The notes under the pieces: generated by a model
What the model was told of the DNA's origin: nothing
Databases searched by the model: none
Seen by the model: only the letters and a program-made list of their open reading frames with translations
Source of the DNA: Gammaproteobacteria bacterium
Lineage (GTDB): Bacteria; Pseudomonadota; Gammaproteobacteria; Ga0077536
Length of the DNA stretch: 64,000 nt
Direction of reading: 5' to 3'
Assembly: GCA_965278995.1 (NCBI GenBank)
Contig: OZ257136.1
Coordinates: forward strand, 2,874,497 to 2,938,496
Shown here: piece by piece, positions 45,787 to 62,313 of the stretch
Numbering within the stretch: position 1 is the first letter of the stretch
Layout: every line of letters starts with the position of its first letter
Translations under genes and position numbers: made by a program

Positions 45787-45820
45787 ATCGCGAGATCCTC
45801 AATCAATCGAAAAGCAGGTT

Positions 45821-45899
45821 GGTGAAAAACTACTGCGCTCGGCATGACGGCATTGCACGAGCGCGCCTTGTCCTGCCTTCGCTCGCTACGTTTTTCACC
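45821..45899. repeat. MITE/REP-like palindromic element, copy C (GGTGAAAAACTAC ... TACGTTTTTCACC), directly abutting the terminal attC of the cassette array
   Basis: Its reverse complement is ~85% identical to copy B, and the core CCTTGTCCTGCC is shared with copy A. Confidence 0.6.
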
Positions 45900-45902
45900 A
45901 GC

Positions 45903-45972
45903 CTGCTAACGCGTCGAAGAGCGGCGTTGGAGCGCGCAGCGCGGAAGCGGCCGCTCGATTGGCGGGTTAAGT
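45903..45972. other. Integron attC site 1. It is the most diverged member of the attC family, with an inverse core TAAC and a core GTTAAG.
   Basis: It runs from GCCTGCTAAC to CCGCTCGATTGGCGGGTTAAG and is aligned to four other copies. Confidence 0.6.
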
Positions 45973-46612
45973 GCCGCGGTCTGCCAAACTAAGTGCAACA
46001 CCCTCATCGATCGCGGGTGGAGAACCGGCGTTACTGTCGGCTTCCTCGTCCGCCAAGACGGGGTTGTAAACATGACATACCACCAGCTCTCCGATAATGA
46101 ACAATACGTCATCGGCAGGCTTTGCCGCCAGCGGCGCAGCCTACGCTAAATCGCCTTTGCAGCGGGCCGTGCATCATCAGCCGCATACTCAAGCGGAACG
46201 CCACCCAGCACGACGGCCACTACCGGCCTGAAAAGGCCCACCAATATGCTGTCGCCAGGCGTCGTCGCAGCCGCCGTAATCGACACCATGGTCCATGTGA
46301 CTGGAAGCCCCATGGCCCGCGCGCTGCCCAGCCAATCGCGGCAGATTGCTCGGCAAGCGCCATATCAGCGAGCGTTCTAAACGCGTCGAGCGCGTGACCG
46401 GCTTCCTCGTCATCAAAAAGCGCAAAGCCCGCACCATGGCGCAAGCGGCCCGCGCCCTCACTCGCGCTATCCCACAACTCGATGCACGCTTCACGACCGT
46501 CACGCTCGACAACTTGACAACCGACCGCGCGAGCGGCTCGGATTTAAAACACCCGCCGAAGTATTCTTCGGCCCGTCCTAACGGTGCTGCACTTCAAAGT
46601 GGAATTCAAGCC

Positions 46613-46819
46613 TCAGTGCGAGGCCAGTTCTTCACGGACAATTTTGCGCACCAATTCTGGGGAGAGAACCTCTTCGCCCGAGCTGACGTGCGCTTTAAGT
46701 GCCTCGTTGATCAATGTCTGGTAGCCCTTACCAGACTTCTCCGACCGCAGTTTGAACTGTTGGAGAATTTCGTCATCAAGATAAATTGTGATACGAGTCT
46801 TTCCAAGCGGCGAGATCAC
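46613..46819 (-). CDS. BrnA-like ribbon-helix-helix antitoxin (COG3514 type) in a gene cassette
   Basis: It is a small protein (KGYQTLINEALKAHV) encoded downstream of a BrnT-like toxin, in the toxin-first order typical of BrnTA. Confidence 0.55.
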   Translation of the reverse strand: MISPLGKTRITIYLDDEILQQFKLRSEKSGKGYQTLINEALKAHVSSGEEVLSPELVRKIVREELASH

Positions 46820-46889
46820 TGCACCACGCTTGGCCTTCGAAAAGTCATATTCCTTTTTTTTAGTTCCGTCGCTCTTTCGGCTCGGCCAT

Positions 46890-47117
46890 TCAAACGGAGA
46901 TCAATCTGATATTTGCGCCACGGGGCGCCCATTTCACGACCATTAACGAATTAAAGAAGTTCATTCCTAAACTAACGAAACGCCGCTCGCCTTCGACGAA
47001 GGCGTCTTCCATTGTCAGGGCGTGGGGATCAATTAACACTCCGTCTCGTTTCGCGAGAGAAACCCCATGCTTCTGACGATTCGCTTCGTCCTTGGTCGGG
47101 TCATACTCGACGCTCAT
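46890..47117 (-). CDS. BrnT-like (DUF497/COG2929) ribonuclease toxin in a gene cassette
   Basis: MSVEYDPTKDEANRQKHGVSL...ERRFVSLG matches the BrnT family pattern. The start is internal to a longer ORF in the track. Confidence 0.55.
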   Translation of the reverse strand: MSVEYDPTKDEANRQKHGVSLAKRDGVLIDPHALTMEDAFVEGERRFVSLGMNFFNSLMVVKWAPRGANIRLISV

Positions 47118-47175
47118 TGAGTATGCACATTGTGCATATGGCGGAACAGAGGAGACGTTGAGAGGGTCAGTCTGA

Positions 47176-47244
47176 GGCCTAACGCGCCGATGATTGGCGG
47201 AGGAGTGCGCAGCACGAAGGCGTCCGCTCCATGGCTGGTTAGCC
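47176..47244. other. Integron attC site 2 (GGCCTAAC ... CGTCCGCTCCATGGCTGGTTAGC)
   Basis: It belongs to the same ~68-bp family as attC sites 3-5, with an imperfect internal dyad and unpaired bases. Confidence 0.7.
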
Positions 47245-47248
47245 ATCG

Positions 47249-48034
47249 CTACGGGAGTAGACCCAGGGATTGCAGACATGACCGACTGAGCTTCTCTCGC
47301 GTTGGACCCATTTCTGCATTCTTCATGTCCATGTTCAGGGCGAAGGGATAATTTATCCCACCGGAATTTACCCACCCGACCCACCAGCCGACACCTTCGT
47401 TCGGATAGTTCTGCCACCCAGACTTCGCCCAAAGGCCCCAGCCTTTGCCCTTGTCTTTGAGAAGGATTTCCTGGGTTTGAGTTTGCACCGTTTCGCTCAC
47501 CGGGAGACGATGAGCTACAAGCTTCGCAATGAAGCTGACCTGTTCGATTGCGCTGATCTGCAGTGGACCATCTAACCAGAATCGGTCTACTGCTTGGCCA
47601 ATCGTTTTATTCCCATAGTCGAAATACTCTAGCGCTTCGGCCATCCGGTTCAATCCGATTCGTCGGGCAAGCGTTTGGTATATCGCTACATTGGATAACA
47701 CGATTGCTTCGCGGAGGCTCATGTTCCGCTCCCATTCCTTGACTGGTTGCGGTTGCCCTCCGTATTCGAGAACCTCGTCAACGTCTTTGACGGCACCTAC
47801 GGTGAGTCCTATAAGCGTATTCGCGATCTTGAAGGTCGAGGCTGGGACGAACTGAGTGGTTGCGCGCTCTTGGTTGTAGCCAGTCATCTCTCCGGTTCGT
47901 GGGTCGAGGACAACAAAGGTGCCTGCTACGTTCGCTAGCCGAAACTGCTCGGCGAGATCGAGGTTCTCGGTCCACTGCGCCAAACACCGCAGCGGCACCA
48001 AGACCAACAAGAGAGCGGAAAGTGCTCTAATCAT
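47249..48034 (-). CDS. Class D (OXA-type) beta-lactamase gene cassette
   Basis: Motifs present: STFK, YGN, a KSG element, WWVGW and the omega-loop element QISAIEQVSF. A signal peptide is present. The stop lies 5 bp from attC site 2, and the start is 12 bp from the split attC site 3. Confidence 0.8.
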   Translation of the reverse strand: MIRALSALLLVLVPLRCLAQWTENLDLAEQFRLANVAGTFVVLDPRTGEMTGYNQERATTQFVPASTFKIANTLIGLTVGAVKDVDEVLEYGGQPQPVKEWERNMSLREAIVLSNVAIYQTLARRIGLNRMAEALEYFDYGNKTIGQAVDRFWLDGPLQISAIEQVSFIAKLVAHRLPVSETVQTQTQEILLKDKGKGWGLWAKSGWQNYPNEGVGWWVGWVNSGGINYPFALNMDMKNAEMGPTREKLSRSCLQSLGLLP

Positions 48035-48045
48035 TTTGATTGCGA

Positions 48046-48104
48046 TGCTTAACGTGCCGATGAGCGGCGTTGGAGTGCGAAGCACGGAAACGTCCGCTCG
48101 ATTG
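48046..48104. other. Integron attC site 3, left portion, interrupted by the IS insertion
   Basis: GCTTAACGTGCCGATGAGCGGCGTTGGAGTGCGAAGCACGGAAACGTCCGCTCGATTG matches the family, then diverges abruptly at about 48105. Confidence 0.65.
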
Positions 48105-49483
48105 ATGAAATGGACTCCTCCCGCACTTTTTGCGCCGGCATCAGTGTGCCAAAGTAGGGTTGTAACACGTCTACTTGCTCAGCTCAGGAGGAGTCCACCC
48201 ATGAAGTCTAAGATTATTGCTGTCGACCTGGCAAAGGATGTCTTCGAAGTCGCCGTCGCCGATCTCGATCACCACATCGTCGAGCGTCAGCGCTTGTCGC
48301 GCACGGCCTTCAGTCGCTTCATCTCGACACAACCGGCCGCGTTGGTGCTGGTCGAGTCGTGCGGCACCGCCCACTACTGGGCACGCCATGCCCAGGCCGC
48401 CGGACATCAGACCAAAATTATCCCGGCCCACTATGTCAAACCGTATCGCCGTCGCGGCAAGACCGACCGCGCTGACACCGAAGCCCTGCTTGAAGCCCAC
48501 CGTTGCCAAGGCATCAAGCCGGTCCCGCTGCGCTCCGTCGAGCAACAACAAATTCAACAACTCCACCGGGTGCGTGAGCAATGGAAGCGCACGCGCACCC
48601 AGCGTCTCAACGGACTGCGTGGGTTCTTACGTGAACTCGGCTTGGTTATTCCCGAAGGCGCCAAGCTCGCGCAACGGCGAGCTCATGCGTTCCTCAACGA
48701 CGACGCCATTCCGCCGCCCTTGAAGAGTGTCTTCACGCGCCTGCTCGAAGAAATCAAAACCCTCGAGAGCGACATCGCCGCCGTCGAACGACAGCTCAAG
48801 GCCCTGACCCAAGCCAATGCCGGCGTACAACGGTTACAGACCGTCGCCGGTGTCGGTCTGTTGACCAGTACCGCCATGGTCGCCGCCGCTGGCTCACCGC
48901 ATCATTTCCCCGACGGGCGTCATTTTGCCAGTTGGCTTGGCCTGACCCCACGCGAGTACAGCTCTGGTAATCAGCCGGTCCTCGGGCGGATCTCCAAGCA
49001 GGGCGACTGGGATCTGCGCATGCTGCTCACCCATGGCGCGCGCTCAGTGCTCACCAGGGCCAAGCAACTGCAACGCGTCGGAAAGACCCTGACCCGTCTG
49101 CAACAATGGGCCTGCACGCTCGAACGGCGGGTCGGTCATAACAAGGCGACCTGCGCCATCGCCAACAAGCTCGCTCGGATCTGTTGGGCCGTATGGAAAT
49201 CTGAAACCGACTTCGACGCTAACCGCGCCGCCGCTTAACCCCTCAACCCGTTTGCGTAGAGACTATCGCGTTCATGACATTTTGGTTGGACCAGTACCGA
49301 TGAAAGCCGATAACCAGCTTGCTCAGCCAAGAGCATTTCGATCGATTGGCACTCGGTGCGCGGATCTTCATGATGGCCCGGCCTCGACCAACGAGAGCCA
49401 CAGCGAGGCCGGATACACGACTGCAAACGACACCAACCGTCAGCAACGCACCTTCGTCTCTACTTGTGGGAGGAGTCCATACA
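48105..49483 (+). mobile_element. IS110-family insertion sequence of the attC-targeting IS1111 group (about 1.38 kb), inserted in attC site 3
   Basis: It carries a DEDD transposase ORF. Subterminal repeats CTACTTG-N-GGAGGAGTCCA lie near both ends (48171-48200 and 49457-49480). The flanks reconstitute an attC site. Confidence 0.65.
48201..49238 (+). CDS. IS110-family (DEDD) transposase
   Basis: The N-terminus MKSKIIAVDLAKDVFEVAV is present. The C-terminal Transposase_20-like region has VAGVGLLTSTAMVAAAG. An AGGAGG ribosome-binding site is present. Confidence 0.85.
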   Translation: MKSKIIAVDLAKDVFEVAVADLDHHIVERQRLSRTAFSRFISTQPAALVLVESCGTAHYWARHAQAAGHQTKIIPAHYVKPYRRRGKTDRADTEALLEAHRCQGIKPVPLRSVEQQQIQQLHRVREQWKRTRTQRLNGLRGFLRELGLVIPEGAKLAQRRAHAFLNDDAIPPPLKSVFTRLLEEIKTLESDIAAVERQLKALTQANAGVQRLQTVAGVGLLTSTAMVAAAGSPHHFPDGRHFASWLGLTPREYSSGNQPVLGRISKQGDWDLRMLLTHGARSVLTRAKQLQRVGKTLTRLQQWACTLERRVGHNKATCAIANKLARICWAVWKSETDFDANRAAA

Positions 49484-49510
49484 GGCTGGTTAGGCATCGC
49501 GTAGGTTAGC
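49484..49510. other. Integron attC site 3, right portion (GGCTGGTTAGG, with a second GTTAGCC copy)
   Basis: It matches the 3-prime ends of the other attC copies immediately after the IS right end. Confidence 0.5.
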
Positions 49511-49955
49511 CCCGGCGTACGGCCAAGAACGCCCCGGCCGACATTAAAACCAGGCCGACAAGTCTTTGTAAAGATAGCGTGTGCACCTGTGCGCCCAGTA
49601 GCCCAAATTGGTCTATGGCGGCCATTGAGATGAGCTGTCCGAGCAGGACAAATGCCACAGCATTGCCGACACCGAATTGTGGAGCTACCCAGGTAACGCT
49701 TAAAACGTAGAAGGCGACGAAGACACCCCCTAAATAGAAATAGAACGGGATTGATGCTTTGGGCGAAAGTCTCAGGCCACCTCCTACGGTGAACAGGAAA
49801 GCGAGCGAAACGCATAATGCCACCAGAAACAATACGGAGGCGGCGAAAGACGGGCTACCGTACGTAGAACCTAATTTGGAACTAAGCGCGGCCATAACAG
49901 GAATGCCTATACCCGTAGTAACCATAAGACAAGCAAAGAATAGTTGGTTTGCCAT
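49506..49955 (-). CDS. Small DMT-superfamily (EamA/DUF606-like) membrane protein cassette
   Basis: It is 149 aa with 4-5 transmembrane helices. Its stop lies within the attC core. Confidence 0.55.
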   Translation of the reverse strand: MANQLFFACLMVTTGIGIPVMAALSSKLGSTYGSPSFAASVLFLVALCVSLAFLFTVGGGLRLSPKASIPFYFYLGGVFVAFYVLSVTWVAPQFGVGNAVAFVLLGQLISMAAIDQFGLLGAQVHTLSLQRLVGLVLMSAGAFLAVRRG

Positions 49956-50080
49956 AGGTCGAACTCATCTAGTTATTCAAGGTGTAGGACGACAAGTTGA
50001 GGCGCGCGGACATTCAATGCAGCTCTTTGTAAATCTACTCGCGCCTTGAGAATGCGGCAACACCAACTATGCAGCGCGAT

Positions 50081-50150
50081 GCCTCAACGCGCCGATGAGC
50101 GGCGTTGGAGCGCGAAGCACGGAGGCGTCCGCTCGATTGGCTGGTTAGCT
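50081..50150. other. Integron attC site 4 (GCCTCAACGCGCCGATGAGCGGCGTTGGAGCGCGAAGCACGGAGGCGTCCGCTCGATTGGCTGGTTAGC)
   Basis: Family alignment. Confidence 0.7.
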
Positions 50151-50474
50151 GTCACTTCGTATTGCAACTTCGATATAGCTGCCGTTCGTGGCCGACGCAA
50201 TTGCGTCAACTACTGAGGCGATGGACGTTTGGATCCGCGGCCAGCTTGTCGTAGTTAACACGACGATCGAGATTTGGCGGGTATCGAGGTTCTGCTGGTA
50301 CTTCAGGTTCTGGTCTGTTGTTACCAACACATCGAATCCGTTCGCTTCGGCTTGACTCAAAAGGTCGCCATTCTGCAGAGAACCCCAGCCTCGCTCATAG
50401 GCCGTTTCAATTTCATGGGAACCGAGGTGCTTGCGAAGAGGAACTGGTGTTCCCTGATCAAACAGGATCCGCAC
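50145..50474 (-). CDS. DUF5615-type PIN-like putative toxin
   Basis: MRILFDQGTPVPL...DVLVTTDQNL matches the family. It is coupled to an upstream DUF433 partner. Confidence 0.5.
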   Translation of the reverse strand: MRILFDQGTPVPLRKHLGSHEIETAYERGWGSLQNGDLLSQAEANGFDVLVTTDQNLKYQQNLDTRQISIVVLTTTSWPRIQTSIASVVDAIASATNGSYIEVAIRSDS

Positions 50475-50693
50475 TCACGCGACTTCCAGGGATCGAGCTG
50501 CGTGTTCAAGGACTTTTCGAGCTTGGTCTAGGGTAACTCCGGGAAACCACTCCAGAAATTCTGAGATCTGGGCGCCGTCCTCAAGGTTTTCGAATAGCGC
50601 AGATACCGGAACCCGTGTGCCCCGAAACACCCACGCGCCGCTCACCATGTCTGGATCGCGATGGACAGCAGCGCATGTGGACCAATCAATCAT
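50475..50693 (-). CDS. DUF433 (COG2442) putative antitoxin
   Basis: GAWVFRGTRVPVSALFENLEDG is the DUF433 signature. Its stop overlaps the DUF5615 start. Confidence 0.5.
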   Translation of the reverse strand: MIDWSTCAAVHRDPDMVSGAWVFRGTRVPVSALFENLEDGAQISEFLEWFPGVTLDQARKVLEHAARSLEVA

Positions 50694-50733
50694 GAGTTGA
50701 TGCTACGCCAGGTCTGCACGGGGTTCAACGTGA

Positions 50734-50803
50734 CAGCTAACGTGCCGATGAGCGGCCTTGGAGCGCGAAGCGCGGAAACGTCCGCTCGATTGGCTGGTTA
50801 GAG
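50734..50803. other. Integron attC site 5 (AGCTAACGTGCCGATGAGCGGCCTTGGAGCGCGAAGCGCGGAAACGTCCGCTCGATTGGCTGGTTAGAG)
   Basis: Family alignment. The BrnA-like gene stop lies in its core. Confidence 0.7.
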
Positions 50804-51076
50804 CGAGGCTTCTTTGAACGCACGAAGCACCGCATTGATGCGAGTCTGATAGCCTGGACCTTGAGATCTAAACCACTCAAGAACATCCGCGTCTACGCGC
50901 AGCGCGATTGATGCCTTTGGCGGGATTGGCTTTAGACCCCTGCGGACTATACCGCCGACGATATGCTTGACCTTCGCCTCGGGATGCTCAGGAGATAGCT
51001 TAATGTCGCGGCCGCTTTGCGCACGTACCCGCGCCCAATCAGTTTTGGAGGTTTTCGAAGAGGATGCTTTCTTCAT
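50798..51076 (-). CDS. BrnA-like antitoxin, second copy
   Basis: GPGYQTRINAVLRAFKEA is present. It overlaps the upstream BrnT-like gene. Confidence 0.5.
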   Translation of the reverse strand: MKKASSSKTSKTDWARVRAQSGRDIKLSPEHPEAKVKHIVGGIVRRGLKPIPPKASIALRVDADVLEWFRSQGPGYQTRINAVLRAFKEASL

Positions 51077-51314
51077 TTCGGGTAGCCTTACGGGATGAGA
51101 TGACGTGGATTTCGGTTGAAGTCTCGGTATGAATTATTGATGTTGTTACCCCACCGAGGAAGCCAAGCGTTACAAAACGCTGCTCTCGGTACACAAAGCG
51201 ATTATCTTCGAAGGTAAACGTTGGCCCTTCAAAAACCCGCGGGGTGTCAACGAAATCAAAGCCATGTTCTTTAAGGTTAGTGCGGCGCTTTGGTTCGTCC
51301 CATGTGAATCGCAT
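51039..51314 (-). CDS. BrnT-like (DUF497) toxin, second copy
   Basis: MRFTWDEPKRRTNLKEHGFDF...QRFVTLG is present. Confidence 0.55.
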   Translation of the reverse strand: MRFTWDEPKRRTNLKEHGFDFVDTPRVFEGPTFTFEDNRFVYREQRFVTLGFLGGVTTSIIHTETSTEIHVISSRKATRNEESILFENLQN

Positions 51315-51365
51315 GCATCTAATGTATATACACTATGTAGATTCGTCAATCCACGACTGCGCCTC

Positions 51366-51452
51366 GCTCTAACATTCAGTAGCCATCATCCCAACCTTAT
51401 TACGCTCGTCAATCTGACGTTGAATTCCAGGTCGGAGTTAAGGCTACAGTCG
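51366..51452. other. Possible degenerate sixth attC site (CTCTAAC ... GGAGTTAAGG)
   Basis: It has an inverse-core-like TAAC and a core-like GTTAAG about 80 bp apart, with short internal inverted repeats. The call is weak. Confidence 0.25.
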
Positions 51453-52020
51453 AGTGCGAATCGGTGCGAGTGAGATGTTCAATTTTTACATCAGCAATTT
51501 GTAGTATGAGGTTGCCAGCGCCGCCAGTCATTGGCGGGAGTAGAACGCGATGATATACGTCAAACTGAAGTGATCGAAGCTACGTCCGGCCTTGCTGGAG
51601 CGCAGGTTGGCGTTCGTTGCCCGGCACGATTGTGATCGCGTATCCGGTGAATGGTTCGGAGCTACCAGGAGCTGGCTTTTTGGTTGCCTTCTATCGATCG
51701 TGTGGGTTCGGCTGTCCGAGTGCGTTAGTACCGCATTCGCACGGAGCGGGCTTACCTGTATTGGAACTGCGGCCGCGACTACGAACACCAGGAGGTGCCG
51801 CTTTACGGCATTTCAATGGCAGTGAACAGCGCCAGTACTATTATCCATATGACAGCACTGACCAGGAGGGGAGTTCTTCCGACACCCACCGCCATGCGCC
51901 ATTACTGCCGCACTGATGATCAGGAATATCGTTACGGCGAATAGAAACTTGATCACACTGTGATTGAGGATATGGTCGTGCAGGGTACGCAGAATCAAGC
52001 GTTGTATGCGCCGCACTATC

Positions 52021-52992: not shown

Positions 52993-53026
52993 TGTCTGCT
53001 CCCCGTGCGTGCGCGAGCGGCGGCGA

Positions 53027-53821
53027 TCAACCGCACTGTCCGGCGCAGAATGTATCGAGTACCGGATCGGATTGCATGCGCATCACGGCCTGGGAATAGA
53101 TGGGTATGCCGAAACGATAGTGGCCCGCAGGCAGCCGATCAGGCAGTTCCGGTGCGCAGGCTGCACCGAAGGACGCGGCCGGTTTACCGACAGAAGCGAA
53201 AGTCGTGATGATGCGATTGACGAACGGCACCACGAGTTCGTAGCAGATACCGACATGAACCTTGATCAGATTGGCATCCTGTACCGATTGCTGAGAAGTC
53301 GGATCGGTCGCCGAACTGCGATACATGAGGTTGTCGTTGGGGATACGCGTGGTACCGGCGACAGTGACGCCGTGCTGTCCGAGAAAAGATTCCTCACGCG
53401 GGTTGATCAGCAGAATGCGTGCGTAGCCGTCGCTCAACATATCGCGGACGCGCTGCCGCGCGCATTTAACATCATCGAGATCCGGTTCGCCGTCGTGGCC
53501 GGTAATGTCGTCGAGGCTCGCAGGCCCGGTGCAGACTTCGCCGGCCATGGTGACGTAAGGCGTCGTATAGAGCGGCGCGAGCGAACGCGCAAACGCGAGC
53601 TCCATGGCCCACATGCGTGCATTGTTCAGTGCACCGGCGCGTGCAGTTTCGAATGCGGCGTAGTTCAGCGTCGTCTTCGCCTGGTAGATCAGCCCGAACT
53701 GAACCGCCCCAAGGATCAGCATCAACAGTACCGGCATGACGTAGATAAACTCGACCATCGCCTGCCCACCAGCATGACCCCGTGCCTGGGCGCCGCCCCG
53801 ATTGCGGGCAACGCTAGCCAT
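53027..53821 (-). CDS. TadE/TadG-like pilus assembly protein
   Basis: The N-terminus has AMVEFIYVMPVLLMLILGAVQFG (TadE-like domain). The true start may be internal. Confidence 0.55.
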   Translation of the reverse strand: MASVARNRGGAQARGHAGGQAMVEFIYVMPVLLMLILGAVQFGLIYQAKTTLNYAAFETARAGALNNARMWAMELAFARSLAPLYTTPYVTMAGEVCTGPASLDDITGHDGEPDLDDVKCARQRVRDMLSDGYARILLINPREESFLGQHGVTVAGTTRIPNDNLMYRSSATDPTSQQSVQDANLIKVHVGICYELVVPFVNRIITTFASVGKPAASFGAACAPELPDRLPAGHYRFGIPIYSQAVMRMQSDPVLDTFCAGQCG

Positions 53822-54431
53822 CTTCCGGGACTACCGCTGGCACAGCAGCCGGCGCGGATGCTTTGGGCACGGCGGGTACCGGCGCCACCGCAGGACCAGC
53901 GACCTGCCCTTTGCCATCGTCGTCGAGGATTTCCAGGATGGCGGCATAAGCATCCGCAGCTTGGCGACGCGTCGGATCGTCACCAGTCACGTGCACTTCC
54001 ATCTTGTGAAAGCTGTTCGCTGCCTGGCGCAATTGCACGATGCCCATGTTGAACCAGGCTTTCGCAAGCTCGGGTTCGCGCACCAGCGCTTCGCGGTAGG
54101 AAGCGACCGCGAGATCGGGACGGTCGGTACGCGCGTAGATATTACCGAGCTTGAACCAGTGATCGGCTTCCTGCGGGATCTCGCGGACCAGCGCGACATA
54201 ATGCGTTTCTGCCGCCGCCCAATCGCCCGCCGTATAGCTCTGCTGGGCGCGTTCGCGGATGACCTTGATATCGACTGCCGTGTCGTCCACCACGGGATCC
54301 GACGCGTTTCGCTGCGGCGCGTTCTGACAGGCGGCCAGCAGCAGCGTAAGTATGGCTGCGGCAACTCGCGCGCTTACGCTCTGCACCACGCGCCTGCGCT
54401 CGTCCGGGCCATGCAGATTCTCGCTGGCCAT
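53814..54431 (-). CDS. TPR-repeat lipoprotein (TadD-like)
   Basis: It has a lipobox LLLAACQ and TPR-like helices (WFKLGNIYARTDRPDLAVASYREAL). Confidence 0.5.
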   Translation of the reverse strand: MASENLHGPDERRRVVQSVSARVAAAILTLLLAACQNAPQRNASDPVVDDTAVDIKVIRERAQQSYTAGDWAAAETHYVALVREIPQEADHWFKLGNIYARTDRPDLAVASYREALVREPELAKAWFNMGIVQLRQAANSFHKMEVHVTGDDPTRRQAADAYAAILEILDDDGKGQVAGPAVAPVPAVPKASAPAAVPAVVPEDG

Positions 54432-54434
54432 ACT

Positions 54435-55322
54435 TCAGCTCTGGGCCAGGAACTTCATCACTATCGGGAACGCGAGCACGATGAAGGTGACAGGGAAAAT
54501 GAACAGGATGAGCGGGCCGACGAGCTTGATCGGCGCTTCCATGGCCAGTTTTTCGGCGCGCTGGAAACGTTCGTTGCGCCGCTGCTCGGCTTGAACGCGG
54601 AGCACGGTGGCTAGACTGGCGCCCATCTTTTCCGCCTGCACGACCGCGCTGACGAAGCTGGTGACTTCAGTGATATCGAGCCTGTCGGCCATGCGGCGCA
54701 ATGCGTCGGCGCGCGTCAGTCCAGAACGCAGGTCGCGCAGCACGATGGCGAATTCGTTCCGCAACGGTCCGGGCGGGGCCTTTTCCATCGACTGCGCCAG
54801 CGCACCCGACAGGTTGAGGCCCGCTTCGACGCACATCGTGATGAAATCAAGGTAGATAGGCATGCTGCGGATGACAGCAAGTTCGCGGCGTTTGCGCGTG
54901 TCCGCCAGCCATACGTTGGGAAACAGAAATCCGAGCAGCGGCGCAAGCAGGATGGCAAGCGGGAACGACTTGCCCATCACCATCAGACAGACCCAGATGA
55001 TCGGCGGCAAAATGAGCGCCATGAAGAATTGCAGCGCAACGAATTGTTCGGCGGTCAGCAGATAACTGACGCCGGTACGTTGCAGCCGCTTCTCGGTATG
55101 TTCCATGTAATCGTAGGGCAGGAACGGGCAGACGAAATTGGCGATGATGCGGATGAACGGCCAGATCAGTTTCAGCAGCGGCGGCAGCGGATCCATGTAG
55201 GACCGATCTTCCTCCTCGACCAGTGTATTGATCCACGACACCAGCAACCAGAAACAGACTGCCGACAGCGCCCACCCGCTGATACTGAGCCAGGGCAGGG
55301 TTCCATCGAGTGATTGATCCAT
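54435..55322 (-). CDS. tadC: Type II secretion system F-domain pilus platform protein (TadC-like)
   Basis: It has GspF-like helices and a position within the tad-like locus. Confidence 0.7.
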   Translation of the reverse strand: MDQSLDGTLPWLSISGWALSAVCFWLLVSWINTLVEEEDRSYMDPLPPLLKLIWPFIRIIANFVCPFLPYDYMEHTEKRLQRTGVSYLLTAEQFVALQFFMALILPPIIWVCLMVMGKSFPLAILLAPLLGFLFPNVWLADTRKRRELAVIRSMPIYLDFITMCVEAGLNLSGALAQSMEKAPPGPLRNEFAIVLRDLRSGLTRADALRRMADRLDITEVTSFVSAVVQAEKMGASLATVLRVQAEQRRNERFQRAEKLAMEAPIKLVGPLILFIFPVTFIVLAFPIVMKFLAQS

Positions 55323-55334
55323 CGTGAAGCCTGC

Positions 55335-56215
55335 TCAGACGTCAATCGAAGTGATTTTCGTGATCATCAGGTAGCCGAGTATTTCCATCACCACGATGAT
55401 GGACAGTACAGCCCAGCCGATACCCGTCGTCCACAGTTTGCTCATCGCTTCGGGTTCGAGGAAATTGAGCAGTACACCGAGCAGCACGGGCAACCCGGTC
55501 ATGACGATACCCTGCAGCTTGCCCTGCGCGGTTAAACTGCGGATCTTGCCTTCCATCGTCGACTTGCGACGCAATGTATCGGCCAGCGATTCGACCGTCT
55601 CGGCCAGGTTACCGCCGACTTCGCGGTTGATGCGGAGTGCTGTCGTCAGCATTCGGAAATCCTGCATCGGGATACGCTTTTCCATGTTCTTCAGCGAGAC
55701 ATCGAATTCGACGCCGAGGCGCTGTTCCTGAGTCAGGATCTCGAACTCCTGACTAATCGGCACCGGCTGCTCATTGACCAGATTGTCGAGCGCTATCGAC
55801 AGACTGGCGCCGGCCCTCAAGGCACCTGAGACCATCGCCAGCGCATCGGGTAACTGGGCTTCGATGCGGGCCAGCCGCTTGTTACGCATCGAGCGATAGA
55901 CATACGTTGGCAGCACCAGAATCAGCACGAACACAGCGAGCGTCGAGACCAGGTCGCCGAGCAGTATCCACACCAGCAGCGGAAGCACGCCGAGCGCAAT
56001 CAGGTTCATGCGGAACAAGCGGTTGGGATCGACGAACATGAACATGTCAGCCATGTTCGACGAGGCCGAAGCGGTGAAATCTTCGCGATACTTGACCATC
56101 TTGGACTGCGCTTTCACGCCGAGAATGATCCAGGCGGTGGTGGCGCACAGAAACATCGCGGCCAGCGCCGCGGGAAACGCGAACGTCGCGACCAGTCTGT
56201 AGAAACTCTCAGCCA

Positions 56216-56216
<1 letters not shown>
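55335..56216 (-). CDS. tadB: Type II secretion system F-domain pilus platform protein (TadB-like)
   Basis: It has a GspF-like domain and is coupled to the cpaF stop. Confidence 0.7.
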
Positions 56217-57961
<1,745 letters not shown>

Positions 57962-57973
57962 ACTGAATCCGCC

Positions 57974-59512
57974 TCAATCAAGCAACTTGAATGCATTACC
58001 GCGCATCGATTCGACGAATTCGCCGAGCTGCTTCTGCTCACGCTGGACGGCATCGACGTTCTCCTGATGTGCGGCGTCGTAGACCTGCGGCGTGACGAAT
58101 ATCACGAGATCGGTCTTGGAATCGCGAAACGCCCGCGACTTGAACAGGTGGCCGATGATCGGGATCGCGCTCAACCCTTTTAGTCCAGTCGTGTCGCGGC
58201 CGAGTTCGCGGTCGACCAGCCCCGACATGACCAATGTCTCGCCGGACTGGATCAGGATGTCGGCGTTCGTACGGCGGGTCAGGAAGCCAGGCGTATTGCC
58301 GACTGCGACGGACTGATCGACGGCGCTGATCTCGGTCTCGACCTTGGCCCGAATGTTGTCCTGCTTGTCGACCTCGGGCTTGATGTTGAGCAGGATACCG
58401 AACTGCTTGAACTCGATGGCAGCGCTGGTCGGCGTGACAATCTCGATCGGCACTTCGCCGCCGGCGAGGAAGCTCGCCTCACCGCCGCTCCGGGCGACCA
58501 GGCGCGGTTCGGCCAGGATCAGGGCATCGCCGGAACTGACCGCCAGATTGATCCGCGACGTGATTTCGGTGGCGATACCGAAATAGCCGAAGCTGGTGTC
58601 GGTTACTGCCGGATCGAGCACGGACAGCGAGTCCGGCGCATTGGCCCCGCCCAGCACGGTCACACCGTTGGTCCGCGAGCCACCGAAACCGGTTTCCGAT
58701 GACAGCGCCGCTGCCGGTCCGGCAAAACTGTTGCTCCAGTTGATGCCGAGATTGTCTGCCGCGCTTTTGTTGAATTCAGTGATCTTGATATGCATCAGGA
58801 CCATCTTGTCGTCGGGCAGATCGACGATGTCCTTACGGGTCAAATCCATCACTTCCTGATAGGCGCCCATGATCGTCGTGATGTTGTCGGCATAGGTGTT
58901 ATCGATAGTGCCAGTCAGCACGATACGGCTGCCGACAAGACGCACTTCAATGCCCTGGATATGCTGGACGAGCTGCTGGACCTCTGAAAGCTTCGTCGAC
59001 AATGACAGATCGAGAATTTCCGCATAGCCCGCTTTGACCTGCGCGACCAGCGCGCTGTAGCGTCCGTCGTACTGACCGGAAACGACTATCTTGTCACCGA
59101 CCACTGCGAGATCGATGCCGGGCACATGGCCAAGCAGTTTCTGCACCTGAGCGAATTTCTGCTGCAGTACCGCGCTGTTGACGGCCAGCGCATAGTCGGT
59201 CGGCTCGACGGTGAACTCGAGTTCACTCTCCTGACCGTTCTTCAACCATAGATGCAATTCGGTGACACCCGGTGCCTCGCCGAAAACCAGCAGCTGGCCG
59301 TTTTTCAGCAGCGATGTACTGATGACGGCGGCATTGCCGACAGCAACCCGATCGACATCGCCAGGTTGCAGGATGCGGATCTCGCCGACTTTCAAATTGG
59401 CCGCCAGGGCGTTCGCCCCGCACACCAGCAATATCGTTGCCCAGAGTATGGTCCGCAGCAGCGCGTTTCGCGTGCGATGACGCAAGTTCAGAGTATCCCT
59501 GGTGACCGCCAT
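57974..59512 (-). CDS. cpaC: Secretin (CpaC/RcpA family) with N-terminal BON-like repeats
   Basis: The secretin C-domain has AEPRLVARSGGEASFLAGGEVPI and GLSAIPIIGHLFKS. There is a signal peptide. Confidence 0.8.
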   Translation of the reverse strand: MAVTRDTLNLRHRTRNALLRTILWATILLVCGANALAANLKVGEIRILQPGDVDRVAVGNAAVISTSLLKNGQLLVFGEAPGVTELHLWLKNGQESELEFTVEPTDYALAVNSAVLQQKFAQVQKLLGHVPGIDLAVVGDKIVVSGQYDGRYSALVAQVKAGYAEILDLSLSTKLSEVQQLVQHIQGIEVRLVGSRIVLTGTIDNTYADNITTIMGAYQEVMDLTRKDIVDLPDDKMVLMHIKITEFNKSAADNLGINWSNSFAGPAAALSSETGFGGSRTNGVTVLGGANAPDSLSVLDPAVTDTSFGYFGIATEITSRINLAVSSGDALILAEPRLVARSGGEASFLAGGEVPIEIVTPTSAAIEFKQFGILLNIKPEVDKQDNIRAKVETEISAVDQSVAVGNTPGFLTRRTNADILIQSGETLVMSGLVDRELGRDTTGLKGLSAIPIIGHLFKSRAFRDSKTDLVIFVTPQVYDAAHQENVDAVQREQKQLGEFVESMRGNAFKLLD

Positions 59513-59547
59513 GTACTGATCCCCTCGCGTGCCGTGTTGTTTGTTGT

Positions 59548-59874
59548 TCATTGCAGTATCGGCAGACGGCCAACTTTGGCCGCACCATCCGCGCTGTTCC
59601 CGCCGGTAATCATCTCGATTGACGGTCCGGCCCGTACCCGCGGTGCCGGCGCAGTGCCGTCCGTCGGTGTGATGATGGCACCGCCGCTCGCAGACTCAGT
59701 GCCCGTGTCGGTGGCCGGCGACTGCGGCAGTTCCGCCGGGCTGGCCGCCGGTGCTTCATCGACTTTTCCGGCCGCCCCTGCGGACAACGCCATCGACCAG
59801 ACGCAGCCAAGCACAGCCCAGCGACACAGCGTCGATATCCGCCGCCGTGATCGATGAATTGCCATCGACTGCAT
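59548..59874 (-). CDS. Small secreted Pro/Ala-rich hypothetical protein between the cpaB-like and cpaC genes
   Basis: It is an ORF with a signal-peptide-like N-terminus; the call is weak. Confidence 0.3.
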   Translation of the reverse strand: MQSMAIHRSRRRISTLCRWAVLGCVWSMALSAGAAGKVDEAPAASPAELPQSPATDTGTESASGGAIITPTDGTAPAPRVRAGPSIEMITGGNSADGAAKVGRLPILQ

Positions 59875-59876
59875 CT

Positions 59877-61826
59877 TCAGTCGCTCGTCTTCAACGTCGT
59901 CGACTTGGCAACGCCATCGGTTGGCGAACCGCCGATGATGAGGTCAATCTTGCGCGCGCCGCCACCTATCGGCGTGCTAGCGGCGACGCTTGCAACCTGC
60001 GCTGCCGTCAGCGTGTGACCACTGCTGTCGACGACATTGCCGGCGGCATCGACTTTCAGTCCGGCCGAGGCGAGCTGTGCTTCACTCAGTACACCGTTCT
60101 TGGTCATGACCAGCGTTGCCGGGTTGACCACATTGCCGGCTTCGTCGACGACTTCACCATTGGCGTTCAAGGTCAAGCCCGCCGCCGCGAGCTGCTCCGC
60201 GTTGATCACTTTGCCGCTGGCATCGGTGACCAGAGTGGTGGGGTCGACGACCTTACCGCTGGCATCGACCAGTTCGCCTTTTTCGTTCATCGTCAGCCCG
60301 GCAGCCGCCAGCTGCGCGGGTGTCAGCAGTTCTCCGTTGGCAGTGACGACCAGCTTGTCGGGGTCGACGACATTGCCGGCTGCATCGACTATCTCGCCCT
60401 TGTCGTTGACGGTGAGGCCCGCTGCAGCGAGCTGTTCAGCCGTCAACAATCGGCCGTCGGCCGTCTTGATGAGCTTCGCCGTGTCGATGACCCTGCCGCT
60501 GGCATCGACGACTTCGCCGCGTTCGTTCACGCTCAATCCCGCCGCAGCCAGTTGCTGGCGAGTGACGATGTCGCCGTTTGCCGTCACGATGACATCTTCG
60601 GCCGAGACGATGTTGCCGTCCTTGTCGACGATTTGTCCGCTGGCATTGACGGTAAGGCCGGCTTTGGCCAGTTGTGCGCGATCGAGCACGCGACCATCGG
60701 CGGCGATGACGAGATTGGCCGGGTCGACAACCTTGCCATCCTTGTCGACAAGTTGCCCTTTGTCGTTGACCGTGAGGCCGGCTTTGGCCAGCTGCTCGCG
60801 GCTCATGATGCGATTGCCGTCGGCGTCGACGAGATTGCCGGCCTGGTCGACGCCGCTCGCAACGGCGACCCGGGTGCGGCGTTCGCCCTCGGCCTGGGCC
60901 ATGGTGAACGCATTACTGAAAAGATCCTGCGCAGACAGCGTCGAAAAGTCAGACAAGCCTTCGTCATTGCGATTGCGCAATAGTGCCAGCAAGTCGCCTT
61001 TGTCGAGTGCTGCGGTAACGAGTGCAGCCTCGCGCGGGCTGACGTCGAGTGTGATGGTGTTGTAGTTGCGTTCGGCACGCGGCTGCGGATAGTTCAGCGC
61101 ATCGAGTTCCTCGCGGTAAGGGTCACGCCCGGTGGCCAGCACACGCACACTCTGAAGCACCGGCAGAATGACATCCTTCGGCAGGGCATTCGCGACGAGC
61201 TGCTGGATCTCGGTATCGCCGGTATTGGCCCCGCGCGCCGCATCGAGCAGTGCACGTGGAATGGCATCACGTAGCTGGCTCGGGATCGCATCGACGAGAT
61301 CGGCGGTGATGAAGCCGGCCGAGAAGCCGGAGAAACCTGAGGGAATATTGACGAACAGATCGATGCGATTGCCGGGACGAATGAAGCCGGCGACGGAATT
61401 GATGTCATCGACCTGGACTGTCATCGCGCGTCGCCCGACCGGCACCGTATCGGAGAAATCGACCGGGAACCCGGTATCGAGATAGCTCTTCAGTATCGGT
61501 TTGCCCGCGCTGACATCAGCCTCGATGACCCGGCCGAGGTACTTTTCGAAATCGCCGGCAGGAACTGCATCGTTGGAGACGAATCCAGCCGGGATCTTGC
61601 GCTGAGACAGGACTTCGCGGCGCAACACGCTGCCTTTCGGGAGGTCGGTGCCGGCAACCAGTACGGTGACCTGCTTGCGGTCGGCACCGGCATATTTTTC
61701 GATCAACGCCGCTTTTTCGCTCTTCAAATAGACATACGAGAGCGCGGCCGCAACCAGCCCGAAAACGATAGCGCCAATCAGTAGCGGAATACCCAGTACG
61801 CTGCTGTTGTCTCGCGGCTCGGCCAT
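59877..61826 (-). CDS. cpaB: CpaB/RcpC-like pilus assembly protein (SAF domain) fused to about seven C-terminal ~40-aa tandem repeats
   Basis: The N-terminus has a transmembrane helix plus a CpaB-like region (RKQVTVLVAGTDLPKGSVL). The C-terminus has repeats of the form AEQLAAAGLTVNDKGEIVDAAGNVVDPDKLVVTANGELLT. Confidence 0.75.
   Translation of the reverse strand: MAEPRDNSSVLGIPLLIGAIVFGLVAAALSYVYLKSEKAALIEKYAGADRKQVTVLVAGTDLPKGSVLRREVLSQRKIPAGFVSNDAVPAGDFEKYLGRVIEADVSAGKPILKSYLDTGFPVDFSDTVPVGRRAMTVQVDDINSVAGFIRPGNRIDLFVNIPSGFSGFSAGFITADLVDAIPSQLRDAIPRALLDAARGANTGDTEIQQLVANALPKDVILPVLQSVRVLATGRDPYREELDALNYPQPRAERNYNTITLDVSPREAALVTAALDKGDLLALLRNRNDEGLSDFSTLSAQDLFSNAFTMAQAEGERRTRVAVASGVDQAGNLVDADGNRIMSREQLAKAGLTVNDKGQLVDKDGKVVDPANLVIAADGRVLDRAQLAKAGLTVNASGQIVDKDGNIVSAEDVIVTANGDIVTRQQLAAAGLSVNERGEVVDASGRVIDTAKLIKTADGRLLTAEQLAAAGLTVNDKGEIVDAAGNVVDPDKLVVTANGELLTPAQLAAAGLTMNEKGELVDASGKVVDPTTLVTDASGKVINAEQLAAAGLTLNANGEVVDEAGNVVNPATLVMTKNGVLSEAQLASAGLKVDAAGNVVDSSGHTLTAAQVASVAASTPIGGGARKIDLIIGGSPTDGVAKSTTLKTSD
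59990..60850. repeat. Imperfect 120-bp tandem repeat (about 7 units) inside the cpaB-like gene
   Basis: The motifs GGGTCGACGAC and GCCGCCAGCTG recur with a 120-bp period (e.g. 60121, 60241, 60361, 60481, 60601, 60721). Confidence 0.7.
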
Positions 61827-61914
61827 GCGTGATGCCCCCTGTCTAGCTGCATTTGTCTTTATTCATCATGGCGGTTATTCACACCGCCGGCGGCTCGTGC
61901 CGCACTATCCCTAT

Positions 61915-62313
61915 TCAGAATGGCGAGATTGCGTCCTGCGCCATCTGTGCGGCGATGTCCCCAAGATCTTCGAAACCGCCGAGCAATGAATCGATATCGC
62001 TGAATGCACTTTGCGCTGAAGTCAGCGGACTCAGCGCAGACGTCACCGCTTCCTGTACCGGGTCGACCGTCAGTCGCGCGAGAGTCTCCTCGTCGACTTC
62101 CGGATCGAGCGCGACATCGTTGATGTATTCGCGCAGTTCGGGCCCGGTATCGAAATCAGGCAGCGGCGACATCGAGAGCGAGTAGGAATAGCTGCGGTAA
62201 TTGTTCTTCAGGACGTCGGCCAGGGCCGCGATGACATCGCCACCCGGACCGAGCAGCGTCATCAGCCCGAAAGCGAGAATGACGGTGTACTCGACCATGG
62301 CCTGGCCGCGCAT
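61915..62313 (-). CDS. TadE-like/pilin-like protein
   Basis: The N-terminus AMVEYTVILAFGLMTLLG is TadE-like. Confidence 0.45.
   Translation of the reverse strand: MRGQAMVEYTVILAFGLMTLLGPGGDVIAALADVLKNNYRSYSYSLSMSPLPDFDTGPELREYINDVALDPEVDEETLARLTVDPVQEAVTSALSPLTSAQSAFSDIDSLLGGFEDLGDIAAQMAQDAISPF

Follow-up and report, generated by a model that had tools for sequence, protein, structure and literature searches.

The bottom strand of an integron attC site carries the R' box 5'-RYYYAAC-3', which is complementary to the 5'-GTTRRRY-3' of the R'' box, and the sites range in length from 57 to 141 nt. In their folded form, attC sites display an extrahelical G at position 16 and an extrahelical T at position 23 or 24, with a 6-bp spacer, on the arm opposite the AAC triplet (PMC5027507). 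Among the described loci that lack a working integrase are the attC-site clusters that have no integron integrase (CALINs), an IntegronFinder category in which at least two attC sites lie near one another without a functional intI (PMC12444791). Another described form is the sedentary integron of the Xanthomonas type with an inactivated intI. It lies downstream of ilvD and combines a co-oriented array and a host-specific attC family with an intI that is truncated or stop-interrupted at the array head, with cargo mostly of unknown function or of toxin-antitoxin (TA) type, and with associated insertion sequences (ISs) (PMC12444791). Here we analyze a 64,000-nt stretch of contig OZ257136.1 (positions 2,874,497 to 2,938,496 of the forward strand; GenBank assembly GCA_965278995.1) from a gammaproteobacterium of the GTDB lineage Ga0077536. 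We refer to this whole stretch as the window and use its own numbering throughout. It contains an island that we consider, with a probability of roughly 0.9, to be a sedentary chromosomal integron that lost its integrase:

45787-52020, minus strand: inserted island, from the start codon of an SDR gene to the stop codon of a nitrilase gene, 6.2 kb

The locus is an ordinary case of an element type that is already known. It shares with the Xanthomonas-type integrons all the features listed above except the site, since it lies between the nitrilase and SDR genes and not downstream of ilvD. It also differs from them in that its intI is reduced to ~27 codons and in that its host is an uncultured gammaproteobacterium. 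As in a CALIN, there are several nearby attC sites (four intact and one split) and no intact intI in the 64 kb. A complete integron has a functional intI, encoding a tyrosine recombinase with the IntI-specific insertion, beside attI and the promoter Pc, and here we found only the short relic, interrupted by a stop codon. Because this relic exists, membership of the CALIN category is operational only, even if an IntegronFinder-type tool would probably still class the locus as a CALIN. Unlike a CALIN, the locus retains the relic and an attI-side junction, which argues for the decayed end-state of a complete integron and against an orphan array fragment.

An inserted island with five copies of one repeat

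In five related Gammaproteobacteria metagenome-assembled genomes, whose flanks are ~75% identical to those in the window, the nitrilase stop codon and the SDR start codon are 15-90 bp apart. Relative to these genomes with an empty site, the whole of 45787-52020 is therefore inserted. A preliminary description of this stretch had reported a GC content lower than that of the flanks, and this is the case: the island without its IS has a GC content of 0.544 and the individual cassettes 0.505-0.544, against 0.60-0.62 in the flanks.

A repeat search of the region 43-55 kb recovered a ~69-nt repeat in five copies on the plus strand (63-69 nt, 75-92% identical). For the third copy, the match ends after 54 nt and its last 16 nt resume at 49485-49500. 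The copies, with the extents of the corresponding sites, are:

50739-50801, plus strand: repeat copy; site attC_a, 50735-50803
50086-50148, plus strand: repeat copy; site attC_b, 50082-50150
48051-48104 then 49485-49500, plus strand: split repeat copy; site attC_c, 48047-48104 + 49485-49495
47181-47243, plus strand: repeat copy; site attC_d, 47177-47244
45908-45970, plus strand: repeat copy; site attC_e, 45904-45972

We trained a covariance model on these five sites and ran it with filters off over the whole window. The five sites scored 65-92 bits (attC_a 92.3, attC_b 91.8, attC_d 80.5 and attC_e 87.9 bits), and the next best match on the plus strand scored 16 bits. Because only these five sites score within the 64 kb, the repeat family is real, far above chance and restricted to the island. 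It is likewise absent from the fetched flanks of the five empty-site loci. The family of five ~68-bp members named in the preliminary description was thus recovered both by the repeat search and by the model. The possible sixth member was not, as the model gave no score at 51370-51450 or 46580. Both of these candidates (the second lies at ~46580, after the second BrnA gene) were rejected, since neither has a canonical fold or a complementary upstream cassette start.

The same family occurs elsewhere. When metagenome contigs were screened for a 19-nt core pattern, 37 loci were obtained, and the window-trained model identified 28 additional sites in them, often in arrays of 2-5 spaced 0.5-1 kb apart. 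Such arrays of 2-5 sites, with unrelated cargo, occur in more than 20 contigs. No intact intI adjoins the family in any of the 37 metagenome loci, and no match was found at the DNA level in the PLSDB plasmid collection. Decayed intI fragments accompany the family in two metagenome contigs, L060 (12691-13203, minus strand) and L059 (5966-6187, minus strand). One fragment is internally deleted and the other is C-terminal only; both are co-directional with the cassettes, whereas the usual arrangement is divergent.

The repeats have the architecture of attC sites

Because the cassette genes lie on the minus strand, the recombinogenic bottom strand is expected to be the plus strand of the window. 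On that strand, all five sites start with CTAAC (R', including the AAC triplet) and end with GTTAG (R''). The AAC/GTT pairs are retained in 26-27 of the 28 distinct family members that were scored, and the outer purine/pyrimidine pattern is only approximate. A 6-bp stem (GAGCGG/CCGCTC) has an unpaired G and an unpaired T beside it on the 3' arm. Counted from R'', these extrahelical bases occupy positions 16 and 23 with the 6-bp stem between them, a geometry that agrees with that of known attC sites (PMC5027507). The unpaired base at position 16 is G in 26 of 33 sites and C in the other seven, and an unpaired T is present in 28 of 33. The R/L-box spacer, for which ~5-6 unpaired nt are expected, has only two clearly unpaired positions in each arm (GY / TG); because the next three are pairable (GCC/GGC), it is either shorter or in part paired. 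Sites are 68-69 nt long in the window and 59-101 nt long among the metagenomic members.

The ends of the sites are constant, while the central loop differs between sites in both length and sequence. The loop covaries, for instance with CG, UA and GC found at one pair. Across 29 distinct sites, in an alignment fitted to the model, 95% of the cells are paired and compensatory changes occur at seven pairs. The covariation score was reached by 0 of 500 shuffles, and slid controls were 24-43% paired. When folded as DNA, the plus strand is more stable than the minus strand at all five sites (-15.1 to -20.4 vs -12.2 to -15.4 kcal/mol), and the canonical hairpin is the minimum-energy fold at three of them, including attC_a. 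All the features of the sites named in the preliminary description are present: the TAAC/GTTAG ends, an imperfect dyad and unpaired bases. The conserved extrahelical bases, for which a check had been suggested, are G16 and T23, at their canonical positions.

The attC of aadA1 in a class 1 integron from Klebsiella is also detected by the window-trained model, with 29.4 bits and on the correct strand. The attC_aadA1 of class 1 integrons has in common with the window sites the R box, G16, T23, a short loop and a length of ~60-70 nt, and its sequence differs outside the R box and the stem core. On the strength of the R-box architecture, the covariation, this cross-detection and the cassette boundaries described below, we identify the repeats as attC sites.

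Cassette boundaries and cargo

In cassette arrays, the bases just after the G/TT crossover point (the slash marking the cut) are already part of the following cassette, whose own attC has its R' box completed by them. Cassettes 1-4 show this relationship: their starts are complementary to their own R'' flanks at 12/14 (with the start TTAGAGCGAGGC in cassette 1), 12/14, 12/13 and 10/14 positions, the 12/13 of cassette 3 permitting one single-base gap in a hand alignment. Compared with the other sites, the starts mostly reach 3-9/14, although the start of cassette 4 also fits attC_c at 10/14. Because the starts are complementary to their own sites, the pattern is unlike that of repetitive extragenic palindromic (REP)-like repeats. 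The stop codons of four cassettes lie inside R'' or at most 13 nt away. From the head of the array to its distal end, the features are:

50741-51372, minus strand: cassette 1, BrnT (51314-51039; Pfam 3.9e-21) and BrnA (51076-50798; Pfam 2.7e-18), with attC_a
50088-50740, minus strand: cassette 2, DUF433 (50693-50475) and DUF5615 PIN-like (50474-50145) proteins by Pfam, with attC_b
48053-50087, minus strand: cassette 3, DMT_YdcZ membrane protein (49955-49506; Pfam 1.2e-30), with attC_c
47183-48052, minus strand: cassette 4, predicted class D (OXA-type) beta-lactamase (48037-47249, 262 aa from ATG), with attC_d
46613-47182, minus strand: cassette 5, BrnT (47117-46890) and BrnA (46819-46613) by Pfam
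46100-46612, plus strand: putative IS30-family transposase relic, decayed, frameshifted and internally deleted, occupying the place of the cassette 5 attC
45910-46104, minus strand: 3' remnant of a sixth cassette, with an open reading frame (ORF) end (46104-45967, last 45 codons) whose stop codon lies in R'', and attC_e
45813-45909, minus strand: terminal 97-nt stub without an ORF, beyond attC_e

Of the attC of cassette 5, only GCCTCAG is left, 7 nt from the R'' flank (46606-46612). These bases, found past the BrnA stop codon, fit the start of the same cassette, TTAGGCCTCAG. The remnant of the sixth cassette fails the test of complementarity between start and flank, which is expected because the cassette is truncated at its 5' end. 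The stub begins with a cassette start, TTAGCAGGCTGGTGAAAAAC, whose inverted complement is found 59 nt further on, and the array ends at the point where the R'' AAC of another attC would begin. We infer that the stub is a truncated last cassette, composed of a cassette start and the flank of a missing attC, and that the array has its distal end here. The inverted repeat of the stub (45813-45830 / 45890-45907) is 18 nt long and 94% complementary, with a 59-nt spacer. In cassette 5, an A8 run at 46854-46861 (minus strand) splits a short ORF (MAEPKERRN and a stop codon), which starts right after the BrnT stop codon, from the remaining frame of the second BrnA. The N-terminus of this BrnA is frameshifted, which could be genuine or could stem from a sequencing error in the homopolymer.

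The cargo listed in the preliminary description, which lies on the minus strand throughout (two BrnT/BrnA pairs, a DUF433/DUF5615 pair, a DMT membrane protein and a class D beta-lactamase), was recovered by Pfam and NCBIfam, and it is typical of chromosomal integrons. The canonical layout holds in that all genes lie on the minus strand and the stop codons of four cassettes lie in or near R''. It does not hold for the last gap (45971-47180), which is composite and contains a TA pair, the IS30-like relic and a truncated ORF. The spacing of 0.55-1.2 kb between sites breaks down at one gap, which spans 2035 bp because a 1380-bp IS lies inside the attC. This IS, of the IS1111-attC group, and the IS30-like relic had both been overlooked in the earlier picture of the array.

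The probable attI side and a putative relic of intI

Two features at the head of the array bear on the missing integrase, and a third lies between them and the nitrilase gene:

51373-51450, minus strand: probable attI-side junction, with the first cassette boundary G/TT at 51373/51372, outside the attC family
51684-51764, plus strand: putative intI relic, ~27 codons of the N-terminal SAM-like domain, reading LPSIDRVGSAVRVR, an in-frame stop codon and YRIRTERAYLYW
51813-51956, minus strand: small ORF of 47 aa with a signal-peptide-like start and a Cys/His-rich end (HGGG...CCH...HCH), between the relic and the nitrilase gene

Because the sequence upstream of 51373 does not belong to the attC family and is without a partner cassette start, it is better read as the attI side, and 51370-51450 is probably the attI-side junction. 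It includes a promoter-like TTGACG-16-GATGAT at 51412-51385, identified by consensus match only.

We searched the whole window by tblastn with an IntI1 query sequence. The best hit aligned amino acids 17-40 of IntI1 with 51693-51764 on the plus strand (E 0.36), where the window encodes IDRVGSAVRVR, a stop codon and YRIRTERAYLYW. For the relic, Pfam gave a single family, PF13495 (N-terminal SAM-like, a domain characteristic of integron integrases), with an E-value of 0.038 that is below the cut-off. When its 42-aa peptide was compared by tblastn with 7.3 Gb of plasmids at E up to 10, 21 records matched, and 14 of these are annotated as 'integron integrase', including the best one (E 0.6). Because these hits are concentrated on one rare gene family, they are not plausibly due to chance. 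In addition, the relic sits at the canonical position of an integron integrase and on the strand predicted by the geometry. A word-indexed protein search with the relic gave no candidates, and no integrase catalytic domain was found by tblastn in the 64-kb window. The preliminary description had found neither intI nor attI recognisable. This stands for an intact intI and not for the stop-interrupted relic, which has the predicted place and orientation. A relic of intI in its canonical place points to a degenerate integron.

The 47-aa ORF gave a weak YHYH_alt hit (E 0.083, below the cut-off) and is missing from the empty site of the related genomes. To the right of the nitrilase gene, the ORFs at 53000-62000 resemble by eye a Flp/Tad-pilus-type assembly cluster, which is conserved in one of the five related genomes (L005). 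They appear to be ordinary chromosomal context, outside the island.

Weighing the explanations

Several points weigh against reading the island as an integron that lost its integrase. The intI relic is short and its statistics are individually weak (E 0.36, 0.038 and 0.6 at best). The window contains no intact intI, and the position of attI is predicted from the junction. The alignment behind the pair counts, being fitted to the model, favours structure. At two of the five sites the minimum-energy fold differs from the canonical hairpin, and the fold z-scores against shuffles are unremarkable; because the energies are no better than those of shuffles, fold energy is by itself weak proof. The L-box stem of attC_d (47177-47244), 6 bp between the extrahelical bases, is weakened by two mismatches (GATTGG for GAGCGG) and a 1-nt deletion, and this site may recombine poorly. 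More generally, recombination of the window attC sites is a prediction from their architecture. A search of Rfam with permissive thresholds over 44-54 kb gave no match. The core of the preliminary description, an integron-type cassette array on the minus strand without a working integrase, is carried by the attC geometry, the compensatory changes, the cassette boundaries, the cross-detection of attC_aadA1 and the presence of an attC-targeting IS.

An explanation compatible with the loss of the local integrase, and which we consider unlikely, is that the array is still active, with its cassettes shuffled in trans by an integrase encoded elsewhere in the genome. Four of the attC sites are structurally intact, and CALINs have been described as mobilisable in trans (PMC12444791). 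However, no intI was found in the 64-kb window, and both the damage by ISs and a truncated cassette have persisted in the array.

Less probable again is a CALIN in the full sense, in which an integrase was never present here, the array fragment arrived by some other route and the relic resembles intI by chance. This would fit the weak single statistics, the similarity limited to ~27 codons, the empty word-based protein search and the 250 bp past the relic, which have no similarity to IntI and contain a small ORF on the opposite strand. The relic is nevertheless the top IntI1 hit of the 64 kb, and it falls within a ~0.6-kb spot and on a strand that had been predicted beforehand. Its plasmid matches are dominated by annotated integron integrases (14 of 21 records, with the best E-values among them), PF13495 is the sole Pfam family returned, and the first cassette boundary, at 51373, borders on sequence that is not attC, as an attI would.

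We give very little credit to the idea, raised in the preliminary description as the alternative to attC identity, that the repeats are non-integron palindromes resembling REPs or miniature inverted-repeat transposable elements that bracket genes by accident: they are GC-rich imperfect palindromes with folds no better than shuffles and no Rfam match, but they have zero copies in the other 58 kb of the window or in the related empty-site loci, strand-asymmetric extrahelical bases at canonical positions, a variable central loop with covariation, cassette starts complementary to own-site flanks, a model that cross-detects attC_aadA1, and in one site an IS of an attC-targeting group at the position typical of that group. 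We therefore retain the reading of the island as a chromosomal integron that lost its integrase.

Insertion sequences in the array

The IS1111-attC group includes ISKpn4, ISPst6, ISPa25 and ISPa62 (Tetu & Holmes 2008, Post & Hall 2009, via PMC11187229). Its members insert in a fixed orientation at one end of an attC, leaving no target duplication. Such ISs use a seekRNA that is encoded downstream of tnp and has two segments matching the two target strands (PMC11187229), with the segment for the top strand located 5' of that for the bottom strand. The third attC of the array, attC_c, is interrupted by an IS that belongs to this group:

48105-49484, plus strand: IS of the IS1111-attC group (IS110 family), 1380 bp, with a transposase gene (48201-49238) and a predicted guide-bearing non-coding region (49239-49484, 246 nt)

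In silico excision of 48105-49484 restores attC_c exactly, with zero duplicated bases and a canonical fold of -20.4 kcal/mol. The transposase matches the NCBIfam model of IS110 RNA-guided transposases (NF033542, 3.8e-88), and also PF01548 and PF02371. Its nearest plasmid-borne relatives, at 48-50% identity, are ISPa62, ISPpu24 and, from a K. pneumoniae plasmid (L035), an IS110-family element without a name. In L035 and in a second locus (L036), the element lies within a class 1 integron array, with a cassette gene on one side and either the next cassette or qacEdelta1 on the other. In both of these loci, as in the window, tnp is opposite to the cassette genes. The ends of the window IS (AATGGACTCCTCCCGCAC / CTTGTGGGAGGAGTCCATA) match those of the plasmid-borne relatives (AATGGACTCTCCCCGCAC / CTTGTGGGGAGAGTCCATA), and its subterminal inverted repeats are also found, conserved, in ISPa62 and the K. 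pneumoniae element. Insertion is into the same attC arm, at CGATTG^GCTGGTTAG in the window (bottom strand) and at GGCTTGAA^CGAATTGTTAG in attC_aadA1.

The window IS therefore has much in common with the group: a DEDD transposase of the IS110 family, the subterminal repeats AATGGACTC..CCC.CAC / CTTGTGGG..GAGTCCATA, insertion into the R''/L'' arm without duplication, a tnp opposite to the cassettes and, in the non-coding region downstream of it, two short target-matching segments. It differs from the known members in its transposase (48-50% identity), in an insertion point shifted by ~2 nt relative to G16, and in predicted guide segments that fit the window attC family.

The predicted guide segments match both sides of the insertion site (48097-48104 + 49485-49492). 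One of them, TAACCAGC, is the reverse complement of GCTGGTTA and lies 5' of the second, TCGATTGGC (TCGATTG/GC, the slash marking the insertion point), which spans the insertion point. When the non-coding regions are aligned, the scaffold is conserved, and the window segments TAACCAGC / TCGATTGGC contrast with TAACAAT / TTGAACG (TTGAA/CG) in the elements of class 1 integrons. The segments, on a constant scaffold, change together with the target. We therefore regard the window IS as a new, divergent member of the IS1111-attC group that carries a predicted seekRNA and was apparently retargeted to the window attC family.

A second mobile element is represented by the relic at the place of the cassette 5 attC. 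It gives colinear partial hits to the NCBIfam model transpos_IS30 (E 0.011 and 0.0078, both below the cut-off) and contains the C-terminal motif LDNRPRERLGFKTPAEVF. In a search of plasmid DNA with the segment 45971-46620, no match was found. From the profile hits and the position, we take this to be an IS30-like remnant that destroyed the attC of cassette 5. The relic abuts the stop codon of the second BrnA.

A class D beta-lactamase outside the named OXA families

Pfam identifies the product of the cassette 4 gene as a protein with the transpeptidase fold. This beta-lactamase scores 269 bits with the NCBIfam model bla_class_D_main (NF012161), for which the cut-off is 250, and the STFK, SNV, YGN and KSG motifs are all present in its translation. 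No named OXA family of NCBIfam was reached at its cut-off; the best, OXA-50, gave 250-252 bits against 580-600. The window enzyme thus shares the general class D model and the catalytic motifs with the OXA-50 family and other class D enzymes, and falls far under every family cut-off. Its closest relatives (74-86% identity) are all unnamed metagenomic proteins. By these profile scores and motifs, we assign it to class D, outside all named OXA families, and it is apparently intact.

Three of the loci that encode homologues (L075, L077 and L079) consist of co-oriented runs of small genes, and the window attC family is absent from the flanks of these homologues. In L077 (1166-8330) and L075 (3928-9984), homologues with 74-76% identity lie in long co-oriented arrays with attC-like repeats of ~110-130 nt (GCCTAACAA...GCGTTAGGC), a family different from that of the window; no attC-like repeats were found in L079. 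In L077, the array is followed by a filamentous-phage-like block (Zot, RepSA).

Taking the two together, we consider it likely that the IS was naturally retargeted, with its scaffold and ends conserved relative to the clinical class 1 integron elements and both guides rewritten to fit the attC family of this uncultured host, and that the array carries an unnamed class D lineage.

Proposed capture and decay, and implications

The features of the island suggest how it may have formed. Cassettes would have been captured singly at attI, near 51373, each by IntI-mediated recombination of attI with the folded bottom strand of an attC, here the plus strand of the window. Successive captures would have produced the co-oriented array on the minus strand. 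The decay, for which we propose this order, is partly visible in the sequence. The integrase gene has eroded to its stop-interrupted relic, and the array could now move only if an integrase acted in trans. The third attC was entered, in its R''/L'' arm, by an RNA-guided IS that belongs to the IS1111-attC group. The fifth attC was destroyed by an IS30-like element, and a later deletion is likely to have truncated both that IS and the next cassette. The three TA cassettes probably stabilise the array, and expression of the cassettes is probably driven by a promoter on the attI side and by promoters within the TA cassettes themselves.

The locus clearly illustrates the decay of a chromosomal integron, in which the integrase erodes, the TA cassettes stay and the attC sites become landing pads for ISs. 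The points on the beta-lactamase and on IS retargeting are of somewhat broader value and leave the current understanding of integrons unchanged. If the retargeting is true, it would indicate that RNA-guided ISs track and co-evolve with the lineage-specific attC families of chromosomal integrons, and natural retargeting of guides would bear on the programmability that has been shown experimentally for IS1111/IS110 elements. The array also holds an apparently intact class D gene of no named OXA family, in ready-to-mobilise cassette form, in an environmental gammaproteobacterium. If this gene does represent an unnamed class D lineage, with relatives in cassette-like arrays that have other repeats, it would indicate an environmental, cassette-borne reservoir of OXA enzymes.

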